From Candidatus Aenigmatarchaeota archaeon (GTDB lineage Archaea; Aenigmatarchaeota; Aenigmatarchaeia; QMZP01; QMZT01), in NCBI GenBank assembly GCA_003663325.1, contig QMZT01000001.1:15366-79365 (forward strand): 64,000 nt of DNA, given 5' to 3'. The notes under the pieces are model-generated. The model saw only the letters and a program-made list of their open reading frames with translations. It was not told the DNA's origin and searched no databases. This document shows, piece by piece, positions 4,024 to 63,628 of this stretch. The number at the start of each line of letters is the position of its first letter. Position 1 is the first letter of the stretch. The translations under genes were made by a program, and so were the position numbers.

Positions 4024-7000
4024 ATGAATCTGAAGCTCTTCTCAGCATTTATATTTACTTTATTGATGATTGGTTTGGTGGTGGCTGATACACCACCGCC
4101 AAAGATATTGCTTGTAGAGGATGCGCATTTCTGTGGTGGCTACTCGCCAACAGAAAAATGCACAAACGCACAAATAGAACCCTTCTATACAAAAGCTTTG
4201 GAAGCTAACGGCTATGAATACGATACGTATGTAGTTTCTGGTAGTAGTGATAATGGACCGGATTTAGAAACCCTTAGCAAGTATGATATAGTGATATGGT
4301 TTACTGGGGAGGATCATAAGAACACATTAACATCTGTAGATATTAATAATCTTCAACAATACCTAGACAATGGCGGAGCATTCTTTCTTACAGGTCAAGA
4401 TATAGGATATGATATATGGGACACTGCGTTTTATGGAGAATACTTGCATGCATTCTACTGTGCAGATAGTTCTGGTGAATATGATCATACCCTTGTAGGA
4501 ACAAATAATAATCCTATTGGAGATGGCCTTTTTCCTACTATAGACTCTACAATAAAAGGTGGTGCAGATAATCAATACTTTCCATCTGTAATATTTTACC
4601 GTGATGGCAAAGATATATATTTTCGCTACAACATGTTATCCTCAGAGTTTTACTATGAATACATTGATGCAGCTCTTATAATATGTGGAAACGGGAAAAA
4701 ATATGTTTTAAGGCAAAGCGTGCTGCCTGCTGCTATAAAAGCTAAAACCGCCACCTATAAAGTTGTTTATTTTGCATTTGGTTTTGAAGGTATAGATAGC
4801 GATGCAGATAGAAATGAAATAATGAAAAGGGTTATTGGGTATTTGAGCAGACCGAGGGTAAAGGGCACAAGGGTATTAGAGGTTAATGGGATACAGTACA
4901 ATCTCACTTGTGATAAAAGCCTAGATAAATGCTCCAGAATGCTTTATCCTTATCTATACTATACCTGCTATAATGATCAACTTTTTGGTAATATAACAGA
5001 TGTAGAGTTCTACGTCTATGACCAAAACAATAATCTTGTTAAGCAAGGAAAGCCAAGCTTGCAATATGATGCAAACAGCAACAAATGGTGGGGAATTGGT
5101 GTAATAATTATAAACGGGCTGGCTGATGGTCCTTATGTAGTGAAATTGAGATGTAAAGATAGCGATGGGTTTTGGAGCAAATTTGATGAAGTGAATCTAA
5201 CAATAGATAACACCTTTGATAATAAGCCAATTATAGATAGCGTGGAGGGTAAAACATCAACACCTATATATACAAATAAAGTTGAGCCAACAATAACTAC
5301 GACGTATCTTGCAAACAAAGAATTACCAGAGAAAATGCTCTTTTTGTGCTATAATTCTACTTCTATAATTAAAAACACCACCTTAGAATGGATAACATAC
5401 CAAGCCTCGTACAATTTCAATATAACAAATACATTTTATAATTGTTCATCAAGTGATGGCTTAAGAAGGGTTTATCTTTTTTATATGGATAAAGCTGGTA
5501 ACGTTATATTGCCAAAAGATGGTGATGGGTATAAGGATATTATTTTGGACAGGGTGAAGCCAGAGATACACTCAATAAGCCCTACAGGTTATATAAAAAG
5601 CGGAACGAATATAGCTGTTAATGCAAGTGATGGGTTGTCAGGTATAGCTACAGCGATATATAATAACGGTACCCATAACTTTACCTTTACACCAAATATA
5701 AGCTTTGATCCACACTGGCAAGTAGAGGGAATAAGCACGCTCAAGGTATGGATCACGGATAATGCTGGCAATGTTAGATACGCATCTTACAATTATATAG
5801 TTGACAACACACCACCGACAATAGATGTAATTGAGCCTGACAACAACAGCCTTACAAATAAACAAAGTATAGAGATAAGATTTAATGTAACAGACCAGGC
5901 TGGTGTAGATAACAACAGTATAAATGTGGTGGTCTCAAACGGAAGTATATATAGCTCTATATGCAATCAGATAAACAATGGTTATGCCTGCACATACCTA
6001 TGGAATACAACCAATCTCACATTCGGGAACTATACAATAAGGATATATGCGAGTGACAGCCTTAATAATAGCGCTTACGATATTATCAATGTAAAAATTG
6101 ATAGAATACCTCCCATTATTACAATAATACAACCGCCCAATGAGTATAATACAACCTCAAGCAACAATCTGCTAAATGTCAGTGCATACGATAACACAGA
6201 TATAGATTATGAAAGTGCATACTTCATATTTAAAAACTTAACCGCAGAGTACAATGAGTCTGCATACAAAGGCTCATGGAAACAGCTTACTTATTCTAAT
6301 GGGTATTTTATATCTACATTTAGTGTTGAGCTTGGGCTTAGTGATGGCCATTACAAGCTTTTGGTTTCAATAAATGATACTCTTGGTAATATGAACATTG
6401 CATGGGTAAATATAAGCATAGACAACACCCCTCCCCAAACCACAGACAATTCAAGCAGTGTAGATGTATGGTATAGAAGTGATCAATACATAAGCTTGAG
6501 TTGTAGTGATAATATGATGGGGTGTAATGAGACATACTATTGTGTAGCATCACAGCTATGCATACCATCAATAAAGGGAAATAGTACAAGCGTTACATGT
6601 AATGATGGCGATGAGTGTATATTGTATGTTTTTTACAAAAGCATTGATAAGGTTGGCAATGAAGAAAACATCAAGAGTTCAAACAAAATCAAGATAGATA
6701 AAAGAGCACCAACAATAACAATAGAGAACCCGACACAAGGAAGAGTATATTCAGGGATTATTGAGCTAAGGGCAACCATAAGTGACCACGGCTCTGGGGT
6801 AGATAATGCTTGGTATGAGATAATAAATGCATCAAATACAAGCGAGATAATAGCAACAGGTGCATTGCAGGCGCCACTCTATAATTCAACATGGAATTCA
6901 TCTAACTACACCTATGCAACATTGATATTCAAGGTATATGCAAATGATACCTTGGGAAATAACGCTACCGCAAACGTAACATTTGATGTAAATAATAAAA

Positions 7001-10000
7001 AACCGACAGCAACAATATATTATCCAAAATACATATTTATAGGAAAGGCTTTTAATCTGGATTTAAGGGCAAAGAGGGAAAATGGAAATCTATCTAATGC
7101 GAGCTACACAATCTTTAATGCAAGCGATATAGTTAAGACAAACACCACTACAGGAATAAACAAGAGCGAATTTAAGTTTTCAGATTTGGTAACTATTGAT
7201 ATACTTGCTGATGGAAACTATACCATTAACTTTACAGCATACGACTATGCTATACCACCTAATAAGGCATTTGATAGTGCATGGTTCTATGTGGATAAAA
7301 TACCACCGCAAACGATAGATAGTAGTGACCCACAAGAAAGATGGAAAGGCAGCGATGTATACATAAATCTTTCATGCTATGATAATGCCGCCGGTTGCGA
7401 GACACTTGTTTATTGCATAAACACAAGTAATCAGGATTGCCAACCAAACAAAAGTGTTTCTATAGATAAGAATATAAGCATTCTTATTTCATGCAACGAA
7501 GGAGATGAATGCATAAAGTGGATAAAATACTACTCCAACGACACGGTAAATAATACAGAAACATTAAAAGCCAGCTATGCAATAAAGATAGATAAGAAAG
7601 CCCCAATTACTGCAGATAACTCTTCAAGCGAATGGAAGAATGGCGATCAAATTATACAACTGAACTGCTCTGATACCGGCTCCGGTTGTAACGTAACACT
7701 TTACTGTATAGATGATACGGGGGCGTGTGTACCACAAAACATATATGAAGGGTATGTAAACTTGACATGTAATGATATATGCAAGAAATACATAAGATAC
7801 AGGAGTAATGATTCTGTAGGTAATCTGGAGCCTATAAAGACATCAAAGCTCATAAGAATAGACAAGTCCTTGCCACAAACGGCAATATCACCAAATTCAT
7901 CATACCTCCCAATCAACACGCCATTTTCCCTTTCTTGCTCTGATACAGGCTCCGGCTGCAATAAAACATACTATAAAATCATAGATAGCAATGGTATTTG
8001 TCCATCAACAGGCTATTCCGAAGGTGAAAATGGTATCGTAAGCTGTGATAATGGTGCAGTGTGCGAGAAAAGGATTTGCTACTATTCTTCAGATATGGCA
8101 GGAAATAAAGAAAATGTGAAAGTGAGTGGTATATTTAAAATCGATAAAGCACCCCCAGTCCTTACTGCTTTATACATTAATGTAACGGATGACACGATAT
8201 TTGGGGATAAAAGGGTTTTGAATGGAAGCATTATCAAGGTGTATGTAAACTTAAGTGATACTTCCAACGTTAGCTCAGTAAACGTTACAGTAAAAACACC
8301 AAGCAAATTATTCAATCTTACACTTTCCCTTGAAGATGGTAATTATAGCAACGGTACATGGAGCAATGTGCTTGTTGTTAATGAAACAGGTATATACAAC
8401 CTCACATATATTTATGCCCTAGACAGCTTTAACAATAAATTGGTAACTTATAGAGGTTACTATTTTCACTCTGTTGTACCAAGGCTTAATATCCTGCTAA
8501 ATAATAAAACCTTTGCTGATGCAGGAAAAACATATATATTGGAAATGAAAGCAAGCTTTAATATTACACTCATAAACCCCGTGTTAATTATTTATCTTCC
8601 ACCATTCTTTGAAAATAAAAGCGTTTATAAATGCACATTTTCTGGTGGTTGCGATATAACCAAATTTGGGGATGTTTTGCATGTAAACGCTAGCGGTTAT
8701 GGTACATATCTTAGCATAAATACAAACATCTTTGCAAATACAATAGCTAGTGATACAAATGTTAGTTGGAATACAAGCTACAATAATTTACAATTTAAGA
8801 ACAAAACGATTATATTGACACCACAGATCAACATAACTAATACGTGGTGCGATGGAAAAGCATGCACAGTTGATCAGAACAAAGTATTCAATCTCACAAT
8901 AGAGGTTAGCAATATCAAGAGTGACAAACATAGTGGCACCGCTTACAATATTACATTAAATATAACATTTCACAACGCCACCTCGGCTCTTGTACCTATT
9001 GGCGATCTCCCATCAAACTCCTCAGCTAACATAACAATCAGGGTTAATATAACCGAGGCGGGAAATAAAAGCATTAGCATGTTTGCATTTGATGGTACCT
9101 GTAGCTATAACTCAAGCAATACAACATTAATAATAGTTGTAAGGGATAAAGAAAAGCCAACAGTGGAGCTTGTGGAATTTGAAGATAGCTATGTAAACGT
9201 GAACGAAACGATTAATTATTATGTGACCGCACGAGACAATGTAGGCATAGGCAGTATTATTGCACAGATAAATGATAGCGAGGGTCTTGAGAGCAACTAC
9301 ACACTCTCACTTTTTGCAGGAAGTAAAGAGTATGGCATATGGAGATTAAGCTACGTTTATACACAAAAAGAAGGGATTTATAAGATAATGAAAATTTATG
9401 TAAATGATACAGCTGGCAATACACTTTCCTATACACCACCAATCAACGCTTCTGTGTTTTATGTTACAGCCTTTATATTAAATATGAGCCTTTCACCCCA
9501 AATATTAACAATAGGAGAAGGAGTCAATATCTATGTGAATATATCTAATAACGCATCACCCATAACAAATGTTTACGCAACCATAGTAAAACCCAATAAC
9601 TACACAAAAAGCTATGAGCTTAATTATGATGGATACGAAAATGGTAAATACATATATAGTTTGGAGTATACGAATACAACAACCTCTGGAAGCTATATAG
9701 TTAATCTAACAGTGAGAACAAAAATTGAAAAAAACGCAAAAGCCTATTTCTCAGTTCCTTACGGCTTTCCTTCCCTCGTCTCAAGTAGTGGCAATAACAT
9801 AAGTGTACCACCAAACACAAAATTTAACATTACATGGTTGATAAAACCTGTGAATGGAGATTTACTTAGTGTTAATGCAACCATATTTATAGAAAATAAA
9901 AGTGTTATCAATACATCAGAAGGATATAAAAAGTTTGTAGGTAACATCTATTGGGAGAAATATAAAGATAATGGAAAAATGTTGATGTGGGAGTTCAATG

Positions 10001-12198
10001 CCTCAGATGCGGGCGAAACAAATATTAGTTTGGTTGTAAATACAACAAATTCAAGTGCAAACATCTCAATAGCTATTAATATTATAAAGAGCGATACATT
10101 ACCACCCCGTATCCATAACGTTTCAATAAACAAAAACAAATTTAACCTTTATCAATATGCAATAATAACCGCTAATGCTAGTGATAACACTCTTATAAAA
10201 CACACCTCTCTGGAGATATCTCATAATAATTATAAGGTTAATATAAGCTCTGAACAAATAGGAGAAGGATTGTATAGGTTTACCTTTTCATCGATAAATG
10301 AAACAGGTAGTTATTGGTACAGGGTATGGGTTTGTGATGTTTTTGACAACTGCAATGTATCCTCTAGCTTCAATTTTTCTGCCTTTAATACATACACTGT
10401 TATAGCAAGTATAGACAAAACCAGGTATAATAAAGGCAGGAACGTTACGTTCTTACTAGAGGTATTAGATGTTAATAATATGAGTGTTGATAACTACAAA
10501 ACAACTTCTATCGTTAAGATAGATAATCCAGAAAGTGAGGTATGTGATGGTTATATAGACTCTGTAAAAAATGCTACATTCTACTATTTCATCTCACCCA
10601 GCGACTATCCAAATTCGGATAATGATGCCTGCTATTATGTGTTTATAAATGTCACCAAAAATGGAAATACAGGGAATGCGAGCCTTTCGTTTAATGTTTC
10701 AAAAAAATTGAACGTAGAGTTTATATCACCTCAGACGGGCGAATATGTACCTGTAGACACACCTGTTCTAGTTGAGATTAGTGTGAATGATGTAAATGAG
10801 AATGTGCTGGATAATGTCAGAGCCCGAGCATATTGCTTTGAATGTGGTGACAAGAATACTATACTTACCTACTATCCGCCACGCAGAACATATGTAAATT
10901 TCCAAGCATTTGATGCACCACAAACAGAAACAGGAGACTTTGCTATATTTGCATATGTAACAGATATCTATGATAATGATCAAGGTGAGAATCCTCCAAG
11001 GGTTGTACCTACCACAATAGAGAGCTCTGTACCACAAACCCAAGCGGCACAGGGCATAGGCGGTACTTCTTCTACCCAAGGGGCAAGTGGAGGAGAAGCA
11101 ACATGTAAATGCGAATTATGGAAAAATGTTGGCTGTGGAGCAAATAAGTGCAAAGCACACGAAATGTATCAAGTAAGGGTATGCGAGCCTGCTGGATGCG
11201 GTATAGAAGAAAGGTGTATAAGGCATAAAGAGTGCGAGCCAAAACGGGATTTTGTATTAAAGGTAAGTGAGCGATATATAAGAATTGGAAAGGGTTACAA
11301 TGCAAGCATCATCATATCTATAGAGAATACAGGCAACACCGCGCTAAACCTCACATTTTTCGTAAAAAAGGAGTGTTGTATAGTGCCAAATCCCGGTCGC
11401 ATTACGATTGACCCAAACGAAAGGGTAGAGATACCCATAGATATTCACGTCCCGCTCTATGAAAGGTCTGGGCAGTACATAATTATAATAGGTGCGAGCT
11501 CCGGGCTACTCAACAAAACCATTGCTATCGATATATTTGCAGCGGAAAGTCCTCTAACAAAAAGGTTTAACGCTCTTAGGAATATACTTAGAGACATAAA
11601 AAACGATATAAAGGAGTATAAAGATTCTGGTATTGATGTCTCAAAACTAGAAGAATTGGTAAGTATTGCTGAAGCGTATCTCAATAGATCACAAGAAAGT
11701 ATTATAAGGGATGATGTAAGTGGGTTAGAGACGTATCTGGATAAAATAAGTGAAAAGCTTGGAATGGCACAAAATGAGCTTGTCTATCTATGGATTTACA
11801 AGTTCCTCAATGAAAATAAGTGGAATCTTACTATAATTGCTATTCTTATATTCATATTCAGCTACATTATCTCTGAGATAATAATACCCTATTATAAACT
11901 TAGCAAGGAGTTGACAGCACTTAAGGAAAAAGAAAACACTTTAGTGCAATCAAGGCTGGAAACAGAGAAACAATACTTTACAAGAAGGATAGATGAGACA
12001 ACATTTAATAAAATGGTTATAGAGATACAACAAAACATATTAAAGGTTAGATCAAAGATAAGAAATAAAACAATTGAAAAGGAAGGGCTTATAAGAGCAA
12101 AGCTTAGGCCATCCTCCCTGCTATATTGGAGTGAAAGCATTATTTTAAGAATTGTTTCGCTCCTAAAGAATATTATCGATAAGGCTAAAGCGAGATAG
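4024..12198 (+). CDS. giant (2724 aa) membrane-anchored, glycosylation-sequon-rich surface protein with tandem beta-sandwich-type repeats
   Basis: Uninterrupted ORF. N-terminal signal/anchor 'LKLFSAFIFTLLMIGLVVA'. Very many N-x-S/T sequons. Recurring 'D-x-(A/L/S)-G-N' and 'D-x-x-SG(V/I)' repeat signatures. Four copies of a roughly 90-aa Cys module ('LSCSD..GC..YYC'). Cys knot 'CKCELWKNVGCGANKCKAHEMYQVRVCEPAGCGIEERCIRHKEC'. One C-terminal TM 'LTIIAILIFIFSYIISEIIIPYY' followed by a charged helical tail. Confidence 0.85.
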   Translation: MNLKLFSAFIFTLLMIGLVVADTPPPKILLVEDAHFCGGYSPTEKCTNAQIEPFYTKALEANGYEYDTYVVSGSSDNGPDLETLSKYDIVIWFTGEDHKNTLTSVDINNLQQYLDNGGAFFLTGQDIGYDIWDTAFYGEYLHAFYCADSSGEYDHTLVGTNNNPIGDGLFPTIDSTIKGGADNQYFPSVIFYRDGKDIYFRYNMLSSEFYYEYIDAALIICGNGKKYVLRQSVLPAAIKAKTATYKVVYFAFGFEGIDSDADRNEIMKRVIGYLSRPRVKGTRVLEVNGIQYNLTCDKSLDKCSRMLYPYLYYTCYNDQLFGNITDVEFYVYDQNNNLVKQGKPSLQYDANSNKWWGIGVIIINGLADGPYVVKLRCKDSDGFWSKFDEVNLTIDNTFDNKPIIDSVEGKTSTPIYTNKVEPTITTTYLANKELPEKMLFLCYNSTSIIKNTTLEWITYQASYNFNITNTFYNCSSSDGLRRVYLFYMDKAGNVILPKDGDGYKDIILDRVKPEIHSISPTGYIKSGTNIAVNASDGLSGIATAIYNNGTHNFTFTPNISFDPHWQVEGISTLKVWITDNAGNVRYASYNYIVDNTPPTIDVIEPDNNSLTNKQSIEIRFNVTDQAGVDNNSINVVVSNGSIYSSICNQINNGYACTYLWNTTNLTFGNYTIRIYASDSLNNSAYDIINVKIDRIPPIITIIQPPNEYNTTSSNNLLNVSAYDNTDIDYESAYFIFKNLTAEYNESAYKGSWKQLTYSNGYFISTFSVELGLSDGHYKLLVSINDTLGNMNIAWVNISIDNTPPQTTDNSSSVDVWYRSDQYISLSCSDNMMGCNETYYCVASQLCIPSIKGNSTSVTCNDGDECILYVFYKSIDKVGNEENIKSSNKIKIDKRAPTITIENPTQGRVYSGIIELRATISDHGSGVDNAWYEIINASNTSEIIATGALQAPLYNSTWNSSNYTYATLIFKVYANDTLGNNATANVTFDVNNKKPTATIYYPKYIFIGKAFNLDLRAKRENGNLSNASYTIFNASDIVKTNTTTGINKSEFKFSDLVTIDILADGNYTINFTAYDYAIPPNKAFDSAWFYVDKIPPQTIDSSDPQERWKGSDVYINLSCYDNAAGCETLVYCINTSNQDCQPNKSVSIDKNISILISCNEGDECIKWIKYYSNDTVNNTETLKASYAIKIDKKAPITADNSSSEWKNGDQIIQLNCSDTGSGCNVTLYCIDDTGACVPQNIYEGYVNLTCNDICKKYIRYRSNDSVGNLEPIKTSKLIRIDKSLPQTAISPNSSYLPINTPFSLSCSDTGSGCNKTYYKIIDSNGICPSTGYSEGENGIVSCDNGAVCEKRICYYSSDMAGNKENVKVSGIFKIDKAPPVLTALYINVTDDTIFGDKRVLNGSIIKVYVNLSDTSNVSSVNVTVKTPSKLFNLTLSLEDGNYSNGTWSNVLVVNETGIYNLTYIYALDSFNNKLVTYRGYYFHSVVPRLNILLNNKTFADAGKTYILEMKASFNITLINPVLIIYLPPFFENKSVYKCTFSGGCDITKFGDVLHVNASGYGTYLSINTNIFANTIASDTNVSWNTSYNNLQFKNKTIILTPQINITNTWCDGKACTVDQNKVFNLTIEVSNIKSDKHSGTAYNITLNITFHNATSALVPIGDLPSNSSANITIRVNITEAGNKSISMFAFDGTCSYNSSNTTLIIVVRDKEKPTVELVEFEDSYVNVNETINYYVTARDNVGIGSIIAQINDSEGLESNYTLSLFAGSKEYGIWRLSYVYTQKEGIYKIMKIYVNDTAGNTLSYTPPINASVFYVTAFILNMSLSPQILTIGEGVNIYVNISNNASPITNVYATIVKPNNYTKSYELNYDGYENGKYIYSLEYTNTTTSGSYIVNLTVRTKIEKNAKAYFSVPYGFPSLVSSSGNNISVPPNTKFNITWLIKPVNGDLLSVNATIFIENKSVINTSEGYKKFVGNIYWEKYKDNGKMLMWEFNASDAGETNISLVVNTTNSSANISIAINIIKSDTLPPRIHNVSINKNKFNLYQYAIITANASDNTLIKHTSLEISHNNYKVNISSEQIGEGLYRFTFSSINETGSYWYRVWVCDVFDNCNVSSSFNFSAFNTYTVIASIDKTRYNKGRNVTFLLEVLDVNNMSVDNYKTTSIVKIDNPESEVCDGYIDSVKNATFYYFISPSDYPNSDNDACYYVFINVTKNGNTGNASLSFNVSKKLNVEFISPQTGEYVPVDTPVLVEISVNDVNENVLDNVRARAYCFECGDKNTILTYYPPRRTYVNFQAFDAPQTETGDFAIFAYVTDIYDNDQGENPPRVVPTTIESSVPQTQAAQGIGGTSSTQGASGGEATCKCELWKNVGCGANKCKAHEMYQVRVCEPAGCGIEERCIRHKECEPKRDFVLKVSERYIRIGKGYNASIIISIENTGNTALNLTFFVKKECCIVPNPGRITIDPNERVEIPIDIHVPLYERSGQYIIIIGASSGLLNKTIAIDIFAAESPLTKRFNALRNILRDIKNDIKEYKDSGIDVSKLEELVSIAEAYLNRSQESIIRDDVSGLETYLDKISEKLGMAQNELVYLWIYKFLNENKWNLTIIAILIFIFSYIISEIIIPYYKLSKELTALKEKENTLVQSRLETEKQYFTRRIDETTFNKMVIEIQQNILKVRSKIRNKTIEKEGLIRAKLRPSSLLYWSESIILRIVSLLKNIIDKAKAR

Positions 12199-13770: not shown

Positions 13771-13807
13771 TTTAAGAATTATATAATTTTAGCTTAAAAA
13801 TGCCCCG

Positions 13808-13881
13808 GCCGGGATTTCCCATGCTTATTGGTTGCAGGATGCATCGAAACCCGCTGGTGGTTTCGATTTTGAACCCGGGTC
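13808..13881 (-). repeat. 74-nt segment (T arm + T-loop intron) identical to 62440-62513 (inverted orientation)
   Basis: Base-by-base comparison of the reverse complement of 13808-13881 with 62440-62513 shows no mismatch. Flanking bases differ on both sides. Confidence 0.85.
13815..13867 (-). other. tRNA-Glu intron 2 (53 nt, T-loop 59/60)
   Basis: Interrupts TTCAAA|...|T of the T-loop. Identical in sequence to the tRNA-Arg intron at 62454-62506. Contains the 9-bp hairpin ATCGAAACC/GGTTTCGAT. Confidence 0.65.
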
Positions 13882-13888
13882 TTCGGCT

Positions 13889-13955
13889 TTCCTCGCTTAT
13901 TTCATAGCATAGCGATGCATGCTCAACCCTTCCAAGCCATTTCATTATTCAAGCT
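13889..13955 (-). other. tRNA-Glu intron 1 (67 nt, canonical 37/38 position)
   Basis: A BHB can be drawn. Anticodon stem, bulge AA|A38, 4-bp helix CUUU/GAGG (two G.U), bulge CG|A, inner helix GCTT/AAGC. Confidence 0.7.
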
Positions 13956-14045
13956 CGAAAGGCCGATATCCTTGGCCGGACTAGACTACCGGGGCATAAA
14001 ATAGATAACTTATTTAAAATTTATATTTTTGAGCCTTTTAACTTA

Positions 14046-28502: not shown

Positions 28503-28515
28503 TTTTATAAAATCA

Positions 28516-28600
28516 CGCTGGGGCTGGGATTTGAACCCAGAAGTCCACAAGGGACACCAGCTCTCCAGGCTGGCGCGTTACCTGGTTCCGCCACCCCAGC
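28516..28600 (-). tRNA. tRNA-Ser(GGA), intron-less
   Basis: Acceptor GCTGGGG/CCCCAGC. Anticodon stem CCAGC/GCTGG with loop CTGGAGA. Long variable arm GTCC-CTTGT-GGAC. T arm CTGGG-TTCAAAT-CCCAG. Discriminator G. Confidence 0.9.
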
Positions 28601-28814
28601 ATAATGCTTTGCAATGATTATATATAATTTGGAATCGTTAATTTTAATTCATTTAAGATTAAAATTGTTAGTTCTATAATAATAGGAACAATATGTTTGG
28701 CTCCTATTTTCACAGCAAAAAATGCCATAATCTATACAAACTATCAATGGCCTGTTATAGCTTATTATTCCCATCGAAGCTAAATTTTTTATTAACTCTT
28801 GAAAATACATTTTT

Positions 28815-62386: not shown

Positions 62387-62439
62387 GCGTAGAGGGCATG
62401 TAGGGTAGTTTGGATATCCTGAGGGCTTGCGGAGCCCTT

Positions 62440-62513
62440 GACCCGGGTTCAAAATCGAAACCACCAGCGGGTTTCGATGCATCCTGCAACCAATAAGCAT
62501 GGGAAATCCCGGC
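62440..62513 (+). repeat. 74-nt segment identical to 13808-13881 (inverted orientation)
   Basis: See the partner entry. The segment covers 3 nt of variable region, the full T arm, the 53-nt intron and the first acceptor base. Confidence 0.85.
62454..62506 (+). other. tRNA-Arg T-loop intron (53 nt)
   Basis: Identical to tRNA-Glu intron 2. Bulge AA|T beside the T stem, 3-bp helix TTC/GGA-type pairing, then hairpin ATCGAAACC/GGTTTCGAT (relaxed BHB). Confidence 0.65.
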
Positions 62514-62533
62514 ATGCCCATATGCCATGGAAG

Positions 62534-63628
62534 ATGAAGGCTTTGGTGGATGATTTTTTTGTAAAAGAAATAAGCAAGGAAATTGAAGAAAGTGAAGATG
62601 GGGAGTATTTATGGTTTAGATTGAGGAAGAAGAATTGGGATTTTTATAAGTTATTGAAGGTTATGGCAAGAAGGCTTGGGGTCTCTATAAAAAGGTTTGG
62701 ATATGCAGGGGTTAAGGATAAATTTGCTGTGACCGATCAGCTCATCTCTCTTTGGAAAGGTAGAGAGGAAGAGGTGAGGAAGATAAGACTTAGAGATGTT
62801 GAATTTTACGGGTTTAGAAGAGCAAGCATGCCGTTAAGCTTGGGTTTGCTTAAGGGCAACCAATTCAAAATAGTAGTCAGAAACATAAGAGAGAAGGAAA
62901 TAGATAAGATCGGTAAGAATGTTGAGCAAGCTAAGAAGGAAGGGGTACTAAATCTTTACGGGGAGCAAAGGTTTGGTAGCAAGAGATATGTTAATGCCAA
63001 GGTTGGCTATTTAATCGTTAAAGGCAAGGTAAAGGATGCCGTTATTACTTACTTAACTGAAACAGGAGCAAGTGAGCCAAAGGAAACGAGGGAGGCGAGA
63101 ATGTTATTAAAGAATGAGCTGGATTTTAGAAAGGCTTTAAAAATATTTCCCAAACACCTTAAGTACGAGCTTGCAATCCTTAATCACCTTGCAAGGTACG
63201 AAAATGATTATGTTGGTGCGTTAAGGGCATTGCCAAAGTACCTAAGAAAGATGTTTGTTCACGCATATCAAACAGAATTATGGAATAAGATTGCAAAAAA
63301 GGCACACAGCGTAGCTGCGCATAATATAAAAATCCCAATAATAGGTTACGAGACTAATTTATCAAAATACAAAGAAATTGAGGGCATAGTAAGGGATGTA
63401 ATGGGAGAAGAAGGGATAGGGGCTGCGAGCTTTAAAATAAATCAGATACCCGAGCTTTCTAGCAAGGGGGATGAAAGGTACATGCTTGTTTTTCCAAAAG
63501 GTATAAAATTTAGCGTTGGAGAAGATGAACTGAACGATGGCATGTTAAAAGCAATCTTTGAATTTTATGCTCCTAAAGGAAGTTACGGAACTGTTATTGT
63601 TCAGCAATTCATGAAAAATGTTGCCTAA
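62534..63628 (+). CDS. truD: tRNA pseudouridine(13) synthase TruD/Pus7 family
   Basis: Start moved past the tRNA to 'MKALVDDFFVKEI' (or Met at 62522). Catalytic 'FGYAGVKDKFAVT', plus 'NLYGEQRFG'. Confidence 0.8.
   Translation: MKALVDDFFVKEISKEIEESEDGEYLWFRLRKKNWDFYKLLKVMARRLGVSIKRFGYAGVKDKFAVTDQLISLWKGREEEVRKIRLRDVEFYGFRRASMPLSLGLLKGNQFKIVVRNIREKEIDKIGKNVEQAKKEGVLNLYGEQRFGSKRYVNAKVGYLIVKGKVKDAVITYLTETGASEPKETREARMLLKNELDFRKALKIFPKHLKYELAILNHLARYENDYVGALRALPKYLRKMFVHAYQTELWNKIAKKAHSVAAHNIKIPIIGYETNLSKYKEIEGIVRDVMGEEGIGAASFKINQIPELSSKGDERYMLVFPKGIKFSVGEDELNDGMLKAIFEFYAPKGSYGTVIVQQFMKNVA

Follow-up and report, generated by a model that had tools for sequence, protein, structure and literature searches.

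Two tRNA genes of an Aenigmatarchaeota archaeon carry identical 53-nt T-loop inserts that are probably recently duplicated introns

Introduction

In Thermoproteales, near-identical short introns are present in different tRNA genes, at canonical as well as non-canonical positions (PMC4090602 and PMC4033280, both summarizing Fujishima 2010). According to these two summaries, the 'transposition' of such introns was inferred from sequence similarity, and neither a mechanism nor a mobile unit was defined. It has yet to be explained by which route short introns spread among archaeal tRNA genes. The present study concerns a 64-kb stretch of Aenigmatarchaeota DNA (hereafter referred to as the window), in which identical 53-nt inserts interrupt the T-loops of a tRNA-Glu and a tRNA-Arg gene and provide a zero-divergence donor/recipient pair in a single genome. 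The family around this pair is modular, built from a constrained 38-nt hairpin and an exon-matching adapter, and has members in two or more groups of DPANN archaea. Direct tests thereby become possible of what constitutes the unit of movement and of what a new intron minimally requires to be tolerated.

Position 59/60 is a known major non-canonical intron site, and in vitro cleavage of an intron at this position by a DPANN endonuclease has been described (PMC3239211). In diverse DPANN lineages, the EndA enzyme carries an additional loop, a feature that goes together with heavily disrupted tRNA genes (PMC5829648). As judged from the Thermoproteales summaries, tRNA intron transposition in that group is the closest precedent for the duplicated intron of the window: in both cases similar or identical short introns of the bulge-helix-bulge (BHB) type occur across isoacceptor families, contain no open reading frame (ORF) and were probably gained at the DNA level. 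The hosts differ, since those of the introns described here are DPANN archaea, with Aenigmatarchaeota and Pacearchaeota labels, rather than Thermoproteales. The T-loop introns of ARMAN-2 and Micrarchaeota, which are cut by the epsilon2 splicing endonuclease (PMC3239211), share with the window a DPANN host, the 59/60 position, a relaxed BHB motif (predicted in the window) and several introns per tRNA. However, the ARMAN-2 examples are 13 nt long or otherwise unrelated in sequence, and neither a shared module nor a duplication between tRNAs is reported in that study. As far as the literature searched shows, intron duplication between tRNA genes is a known archaeal event that has not been tied to Aenigmatarchaeota, nor to a conserved 38-nt module that occurs in both orientations and at gene starts. 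The analysis presented here indicated that both inserts are likely to be archaeal protein-spliced (BHB-type) T-loop mini-introns at approximately position 59/60, duplicated recently at the DNA level.

Results and Discussion

Identical T-Loop Inserts in tRNA-Glu and tRNA-Arg

The window has a G+C content of 36% and is also contained in the 139-kb ENA contig ERZ27227322:k141_930189, of which it covers approximately 74.8–138.8 kb. Best matches of its proteins, as well as the contig labels, were Aenigmatarchaeota. Protein identities were only approximately 50–60%, indicating that the databases hold no close relative of this genome. As stated in an initial annotation of the window, the reverse complement of positions 13808–13881 was identical to positions 62440–62513 over 74 of 74 nt, with identity ending at once on both flanks. 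This inverted pair of cassettes (13808..13881, minus strand, in tRNA-Glu; 62440..62513, plus strand, in tRNA-Arg) was the longest and only near-perfect repeat of at least 28 nt that a repeat scan detected in the 64 kb. When up to three mismatches were allowed, the 53-nt insert and two sub-patterns of it occurred exactly twice in the window, against an expectation of 0 to 0.03 from shuffled sequences.

On the intact window, ARAGORN and Rfam together called a single tRNA, tRNA-Ser (28515–28601). While the 53 nt were present, neither the tRNA-Glu nor the tRNA-Arg precursor was called as a tRNA by ARAGORN; Rfam gave a weak partial tRNA match at 62394–62451, in tRNA-Arg. In silico deletion of the 53 nt led ARAGORN to recover tRNA-Glu(ttc) and tRNA-Arg(gcg) with normal arms. 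In both genes, precise removal of the insert thus yielded a canonical cloverleaf, and the anatomy given in the initial annotation (three nucleotides of the variable region, T stem, T-loop intron, T stem and first acceptor base) as well as its description of a T-loop intron shared by two otherwise unrelated tRNAs proved to be correct. Two of the three tRNAs of the window were missed by both programs, a case that shows why standard tRNA finders miss genes in such genomes.

The tRNA-Glu(UUC) gene (13801..13995, minus strand) has two introns, a 195-nt precursor and a 75-nt mature form, with acceptor strands GCCCCGG/CCGGGGC and discriminator A at 13801. The tRNA-Arg(GCG) gene (62394..62520, plus strand) has the T-loop intron only, a 127-nt precursor and a 74-nt mature form, with acceptor strands GGGCATG/CATGCCC. 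The T-loop introns occupy 13815..13867 (minus strand, at approximately 59/60) and 62454..62506 (plus strand). Because exon and intron both end in AAA, their boundary is ambiguous from sequence by up to 3 nt in an A-run (TTCAAA|A...GGGAAA|T), which places splicing at 58/59 or 59/60.

The 21 exonic bases of the cassette (GAC-CCGGG-TTCAAAT-CCCGG-C) correspond to a standard archaeal T arm. Archaea were scanned with GCCGAAGACCCGGGTTCRAA, which comprises the 3' anticodon stem, the variable region and the 5' half of the T arm of tRNA-Glu. Matches were found at at least 119 loci (Bathyarchaeia, Methanotrichales, Thermoplasmata, DPANN and others); among the 120 matches listed, 113 continued directly into NCCCGG and 100 into TCCCGGC. 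The same arm also occurs free of an intron: all 21 exonic bases were present in an intron-less tRNA-Arg(GCG) of a DHVE2 archaeon and 20 of the 21 in the intron-less T arm of the tRNA-Gly of locus L005 (L-numbers denote the loci and contigs collected in this analysis). Both the Glu and the Arg gene already had this ancient, standard T arm, so that co-conversion of the flanking exon, proposed in the initial annotation, need not be invoked.

Predicted Fold and Splicing of the Insert

The first 38 nt of the 53-nt intron form a core, designated E in the orientation of the window and E' in the reverse complement, with the sequence ATCGAAACC-ACCAGCG-GGTTTCGAT-GCATCCTGCAACC. It consists of a 9-bp hairpin followed by GCATCC and has the general form ATCGAAACC-N7-GGTTTCGAT-GCATCC. 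In tRNA-Glu, the core is located at 13830..13867, with its hairpin at 13843–13867 and a score of 63.7 bits with covariance model R1, a model of the 38-nt core; the 15-nt adapter AATAAGCATGGGAAA follows at 13815..13829 (all minus strand). In tRNA-Arg, the corresponding plus-strand positions are 62454..62491 for the core, likewise recognized by model R1, 62454–62478 for its hairpin and 62492..62506 for the adapter, which closes the predicted relaxed BHB motif.

Minimum-free-energy structures of the T arm plus intron started with the 5-bp T stem, followed by a 2-nt bulge on the 3' strand (3 nt, A-A-U, in an alternative register) and a 3-bp helix in which U54-U55-C56 of the T-loop pair with G-A-A near the intron 3' end, within GGGAA of the adapter. 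A 3-nt AAA bulge on the 5' strand came next and led directly into the 9-bp hairpin (AUCGAAACC/GGUUUCGAU, 7-nt loop). A small second helix completed the fold, with CCUGC of the core, including part of the conserved GCAUCC, pairing with GCA-GG of the adapter. The predicted splice-site motif has a relaxed form (2–3-nt bulge, 3-bp helix, 3-nt bulge, hairpin) instead of the strict 3-4-3 geometry; relaxed motifs compatible with this layout have been described (PMC3239211). Introns with the same core in other genomes showed the same layout in a cleaner form, nearer to 3-4-3: the T-loop intron of L009 has a UUCGA/UCGAA helix and a 3-nt AAU bulge (z = −3.3), and the tRNA-Gly 37/38 introns of L005 and L010 had z-scores of −3.8 and −4.1.

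By analogy with other archaeal introns of this type, both bulges would be cut by the splicing endonuclease EndA, and rejoining of the exons by the RNA ligase RtcB would restore the loop UUCAAAU; in both tRNAs, the spliced junction would be GGGTTCAAA joined to TCCCGG. Archaeal introns are excised as circles, and the excised 53-nt RNA would probably be circularised.

Other identities of the insert were considered. A self-splicing group I or group II intron was rejected, based on a length of only 53 nt and the lack of an Rfam match at permissive thresholds; no known RNA family was hit at the Rfam gathering threshold or with E-values up to 10. Origin from a degenerate T arm or tRNA fragment was likewise not adopted: pairing of GCGGG with CCTGC is possible in the window variant and is not kept in other copies.

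A Family of Introns With a Shared 38-nt Module in DPANN Archaea

Archaeal genomes (one per species) were scanned with the first 31 nt of the core and then with its stems and a free loop, and a metagenome scan was added. The core was found in eight metagenome-assembled genomes of archaea (labelled Aenigmatarchaeota, Pacearchaeota or unclassified archaeon) and in four metagenome contigs. In these other genomes it also occurred in tRNA-Gly, tRNA-Trp, tRNA-Ile and an unnamed tRNA. As with the transposed introns of Thermoproteales, near-identical introns thus occupy different isoacceptor families (Glu/Arg, 53/53 nt), and both the canonical position 37/38 (L005, L010, L001, L003, L147, L152, L153) and the non-canonical T-loop position (window, L009) are used.

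In forward orientation, E started 0–2 nt past the 5' splice site of the tRNA-Gly(GCC) 37/38 introns (L005, L010), the tRNA-Trp intron (L006) and the T-loop intron of L009. Introns with a forward core consisted of E plus 11–12 nt (tRNA-Gly of L005 and L010; L009), and in the predicted folds their 3' ends are paired with the exon tetranucleotide that precedes the 5' bulge (UUGC/GCAA in tRNA-Gly, UUCG/CGAA in L009). In family members, the conserved GCAUCC additionally pairs with the adapter (GCAU/AUGC or AUCC/GGAU). The window intron therefore belongs to a DPANN family of approximately 50-nt introns that combine a shared 38-nt 5' module with a 12–15-nt adapter complementary to the local exon. As a separate observation, the tRNA-Trp(CCA) intron of L006 (approximately 190–400), which starts with the core, continues with C/D-box-like motifs (GATGAGC, TGATGAT).

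In reverse orientation, E' ended 0–1 nt from the 3' splice site of the tRNA-Ile(GAU) 37/38 intron (L001, L003). An FKBP gene located 3' of this tRNA was used to collect orthologous tRNA-Ile loci independently of the core motif. In this set, E' was also present in the tRNA-Ile introns of L147, L152 and L153 and was not found at L151 and L149. The core of the window was identical over 38/38 nt to that of L152 (CP070809.1), although proteins are only approximately 60% identical; CP070809 also carries P0011. According to the Thermoproteales summaries, the unit in the window differs from the introns described there by its construction from a 38-nt hairpin module and a site-specific adapter, and the DPANN module by its additional presence in inverted form at tRNA-Ile 3' splice sites and, outside tRNAs, before start codons.

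Across phylum-level lineages, the hairpin and GCATCC were nearly invariant, while free variation between the other copies was seen in the 7-nt loop, the 7-nt tail and the 15-nt adapter. In a covariation analysis of 13 distinct copies, 97.4% of the cells were paired and double changes occurred in three of the nine base pairs (six cells); the observed covariation score was reached by none of 500 shuffles. Compensatory stem changes were also seen in copies that had been collected independently of the motif (ATCAAAACC/GGTTTTGAT, GTCAAAACC/GGTTTTGAC and GTTGAAACC/GGTTTCAAC). The compensatory changes support the fold and suggest that the hairpin is under structural selection.

Apart from a diverged copy in L001, covariance-model searches of the window and of the first set of loci detected no further copies of the core, and a relaxed pattern detected none in approximately 800 kb of other archaeal loci. 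L001 was the only locus with two E-like sequences, approximately 110 nt apart, one in a tRNA intron and one before a gene. A viral origin of the core was discarded, since three scans of viral contigs gave chance-like matches only, with other loops and no GCATCC. A Beijerinckiaceae match (L007), in which the stems match by pattern only and GCATCC is missing, was treated as a chance match. A CRISPR (clustered regularly interspaced short palindromic repeats) repeat, considered because the core is a 37–38-nt sequence with a hairpin, was dismissed for lack of arrays, with one match per locus.

Copies of the Core Outside tRNA Genes

Copies of E' were also found in protein-gene contexts. In L002 (2720–2772), E' encodes in frame the last 17 residues (RLQDASKPAGGFDIERL) of a HypC/HupF-family ORF and lies 16 nt before the next gene; the Pfam domain of this ORF spans residues 1–55 only. 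In L008 (6368–6410), a single nucleotide separates it from the start codon (ATG) of a tiny basic ORF and, in L015 (1881–1921), it directly precedes the ATG of a small helix-turn-helix protein. Diverged copies of E' were located 1 nt before the FKBP ATG in L001 (3142–3183) and L152 (approximately 1460–1503). L003, L147 and L151 lack this FKBP-upstream copy and have the FKBP ATG right at the end of tRNA-Ile (GGGACCA-t-ATG), so that the copy represents an insertion/deletion polymorphism. A coding function of the element was considered and rejected. In all copies the reverse strand reads LQDASKPAGGFD in one frame, but this frame joins a neighbouring gene only in L002 and is antisense in tRNA introns; the reading frame was therefore treated as a by-product of nucleotide conservation.

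In E', the sequence GGAGG or GGTGG is formed by the loop and 3' stem, 8–10 nt before the ATG. A speculative and quite unlikely interpretation of these positions is that the 38-nt hairpin acts as a portable DPANN RNA-processing signal which, beside a bulge, defines a cleavage site for the tRNA-splicing or end-processing machinery. A forward copy would then create a 5' splice site in any tRNA loop and a reverse copy a 3' splice site, and E' located 0–1 nt before an AUG would free leaderless or near-leaderless mRNAs. Such release of mRNAs would parallel the layout 'tRNA end, 1 nt, ATG' of tRNA-Arg/TruD and tRNA-Ile/FKBP. A possibility in the same context is that abundant excised intron RNAs with the forward core act as 38-nt perfect antisense RNAs to E'-bearing mRNAs, including their GGAGG or GGTGG ribosome-binding sequence.

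Origin of the Duplicated Intron

The two window copies were identical over all 53 nt, including the loop, tail and adapter, whereas two core copies within other genomes differed at two or more of the 38 nt (L002 vs. L010; L005 vs. L009) and copies in tRNA-Ile orthologues by several nucleotides. This difference indicated that the whole 53-nt intron was copied recently. In agreement with the initial annotation, a recent copy event thus best explains an identity that extends to positions which vary in other members of the family. In tRNA-Glu genes of other DPANN archaea (L025, L063, L103, L136), a T-loop intron of unrelated sequence occupies the same site, and three distant tRNA-Arg(GCG) genes have no T-loop intron. 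The site has therefore been reused, and in one gene of the pair, if not in both, the 53-nt sequence is new.

Based on these comparisons, the whole 53-nt intron would have been copied, as DNA, between the tRNA-Glu and tRNA-Arg genes. The identical T arms, which flank the insertion site with 14 nt on its upstream and 7 nt on its downstream side, would provide the same splice-site geometry as well as homology for ectopic gene conversion. Ectopic gene conversion, or 'intron transposition' as in Thermoproteales, is the most economical mechanism.

Several observations weigh against this interpretation. The BHB motif of the window copies is relaxed, with a central helix of 3 bp instead of 4, a 3' bulge of 2–3 nt and a three-way junction as intron-side helix; for such a motif, sequence alone gives no guarantee of cleavage. 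The window copies also fold with modest z-scores only (−1.8 to −2.3). In the covariation analysis, eight of the 13 copies had been retrieved with a pattern that fixes the stems, so that this test rests mainly on the other five, which are unbiased on one or both stem strands. The comparison covered relatives whose nearest proteins are only approximately 50–60% identical, and either gene may have been the donor. Moreover, the duplication may look more recent than it is if the core is under strong constraint.

It is unlikely, although the evidence points both ways, that the 38-nt hairpin is instead a small mobile element, similar to miniature inverted-repeat transposable elements (MITEs) or repetitive extragenic palindromic (REP) sequences, that is moved in trans at the DNA level and landed independently in both T-loops. 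In that case, the introns would owe their existence to a splice-site helix that the element itself supplies. Such mobility would account for the dispersed copies in both orientations, including those outside tRNAs (the 3' end of hypC in L002 and gene starts in L008, L015, L001 and L152), for the indel polymorphism described above, in which L001 and L152 have a copy between tRNA-Ile and the FKBP gene and L003, L147 and L151 have none, and for the invariable abutment of the core on a splice site in introns (0–2 nt from the 5' site in forward, 0–1 nt from the 3' site in reverse orientation). The identity of the core with that of L152/CP070809 over 38/38 nt, against proteins only approximately 60% identical, is also in line with movement. 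However, the window copies share the 15-nt site-specific adapter exactly as well, which identifies the whole intron as the copied unit. Target-site duplications, terminal inverted repeats beyond the hairpin, a conserved target motif and a nearby transposase were all lacking. Copy numbers were low (1–2 per 8–64 kb, none in approximately 800 kb of other archaeal loci or in viral contigs), and the compensatory changes reflect selection for the fold, which would not be expected of pure junk. Compared with RAYT-linked REP sequences and IS200/IS605 palindromes, the core is similar as a conserved hairpin of approximately 40 nt with several copies, in both orientations, near gene ends. In contrast to these elements, it has a low copy number and lacks an associated transposase, a conserved target tetranucleotide and a clustering of inverted pairs, and it is conserved across phyla and placed precisely at splice sites and start codons; the likeness is one of resemblance only.

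Very unlikely is an explanation in which the introns are old, independent residents of the two genes, kept identical by strong purifying selection or continuous gene conversion. The near-invariance of the hairpin and GCATCC across phylum-level lineages, the need of the adapter to pair with the T-loop and the T-loop introns at the same site in tRNA-Glu of other DPANN archaea would fit such residence. Yet the loop, tail and adapter, which are free to vary elsewhere, are identical here, and the unrelated sequences of the T-loop introns in the relatives' tRNA-Glu genes indicate persistence of the site, not of the sequence. The alternative that the cassette is an ancient, constrained component of most tRNAs, named in the initial annotation as a condition for refutation, failed as well: the intron is absent from the third tRNA of the window and from orthologous tRNAs elsewhere. 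Continuous homogenisation is a conceivable variant of DNA-level copying.

Spread at the RNA level, through reverse splicing of a circular intron, reverse transcription and recombination, or homing driven by an endonuclease, is hardly credible; homing and reverse splicing had been named in the initial annotation. Excision of archaeal introns as circles and the presence of the intron in sense orientation at the same site of both tRNAs would be compatible with an RNA intermediate. However, the core is antisense in tRNA-Ile introns and also occurs in protein-gene contexts, outside tRNAs. These opposite-orientation and non-tRNA copies argue for DNA-level events rather than reverse splicing. The 53-nt intron has no ORF, nor room for an endonuclease ORF of the LAGLIDADG or another type, and no reverse transcriptase or homing endonuclease gene was evident beside either copy. 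Archaeal LAGLIDADG introns of rRNA and some tRNA genes are likewise of the BHB type and move between alleles at the DNA level; unlike those introns, the window intron contains no ORF, and LAGLIDADG genes were found only in free-standing form beside tRNA-Ile (L149/L150).

An assembly artefact (repeat collapse or chimeric join) can practically be dismissed: although the window derives from a metagenome assembly and L017, a contig from a second sample that is identical to the window over 1929 nt, stops 3 nt from the Glu copy, the final k of the assembler exceeds the 74 nt of the repeat (the names of the contigs start with k141), and the acceptor strands flanking each copy are mutually complementary, as in intact genes. 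In addition, L156, a 2.3-kb contig from that same independent sample (ERZ27245482), spans both Arg junctions; it includes the whole cassette in tRNA-Arg as well as the sequence on either side, with two mismatches to the window in 2029 nt.

Recombination between the inverted cassettes, which the initial annotation regarded as a possible cause of inversion of the intervening region, is mechanically possible and would invert 48.5 kb. A stable isomer is not expected, since both tRNAs would be broken. Recombination within the cassette would combine GCCCCGG with CATGCCC and GGGCATG with CCGGGGC, resulting in non-complementary acceptor stems in both tRNAs, and the isomer would therefore be lost should the genome have no other genes for the two tRNAs.

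Additional tRNA Introns and Gene Neighbourhood

The second intron of tRNA-Glu, a 67-nt anticodon-loop intron called by ARAGORN (13889..13955, minus strand), is unrelated to the cassette. It has a GAAAGGGTTGAG motif in common with tRNA-Glu introns of other Aenigmatarchaeota (L025, L063, L103) and therefore looks old and orthologous. GATGA-like boxes are present in the tRNA-Glu anticodon-loop introns of relatives, and a C/D-box small RNA in this intron is possible, as judged from sequence motifs. Several Aenigmatarchaeota tRNAs have three introns, in the D-loop, anticodon loop and T-loop (L001, 2908–3124; L010, approximately 4130–4300; L152; L153). Standard tRNA finders will miss such tRNAs, as they did two of the three in the window. 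In some Aenigmatarchaeota, LAGLIDADG-family ORFs are located directly upstream of tRNA-Ile or the FKBP gene (L149/L150, 577–1383; L146, 1–549). In L146, tRNA-Ile is missing at the FKBP-adjacent position, and in L149/L150 it is interrupted ahead of the anticodon loop by another type of intron.

Downstream of tRNA-Arg, and outside the cassette, a gene for the tRNA pseudouridine-13 synthase TruD is located at 62522..63628 on the plus strand (gene call P0241; Pfam TruD, E = 4.5e-96). Its ATG (62522) lies 1 nt past the tRNA-Arg discriminator base (CATGCCCA-t-ATG, window 62520–62524). A TTG-started 396-aa ORF in the ORF list (62438–63628, plus strand), which runs through the cassette, is an ORF-calling artefact. 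The layout 'tRNA end, 1 nt, ATG' was also observed for tRNA-Ile and FKBP in L003, L147, L149 and L151. This arrangement suggests that the mRNA 5' ends of truD and the FKBP gene may be made by tRNA 3' processing.

On the other side of the intervening region, a radical-SAM gene of the AmmeMemoRadiSam family adjoins tRNA-Glu; in a synteny search for orthologous tRNA-Glu loci, this gene was not linked to tRNA-Glu in other loci. Together with a small ORF, it is located on the opposite strand after a 2724-residue ORF (4024–12198, plus strand), which gave only a faint Ig-like (Big_13) signal and probably encodes a giant surface protein. An archaeal RNase P RNA was identified at 1264–1525 on the plus strand of the window (Rfam RF00373, 131.8 bits).

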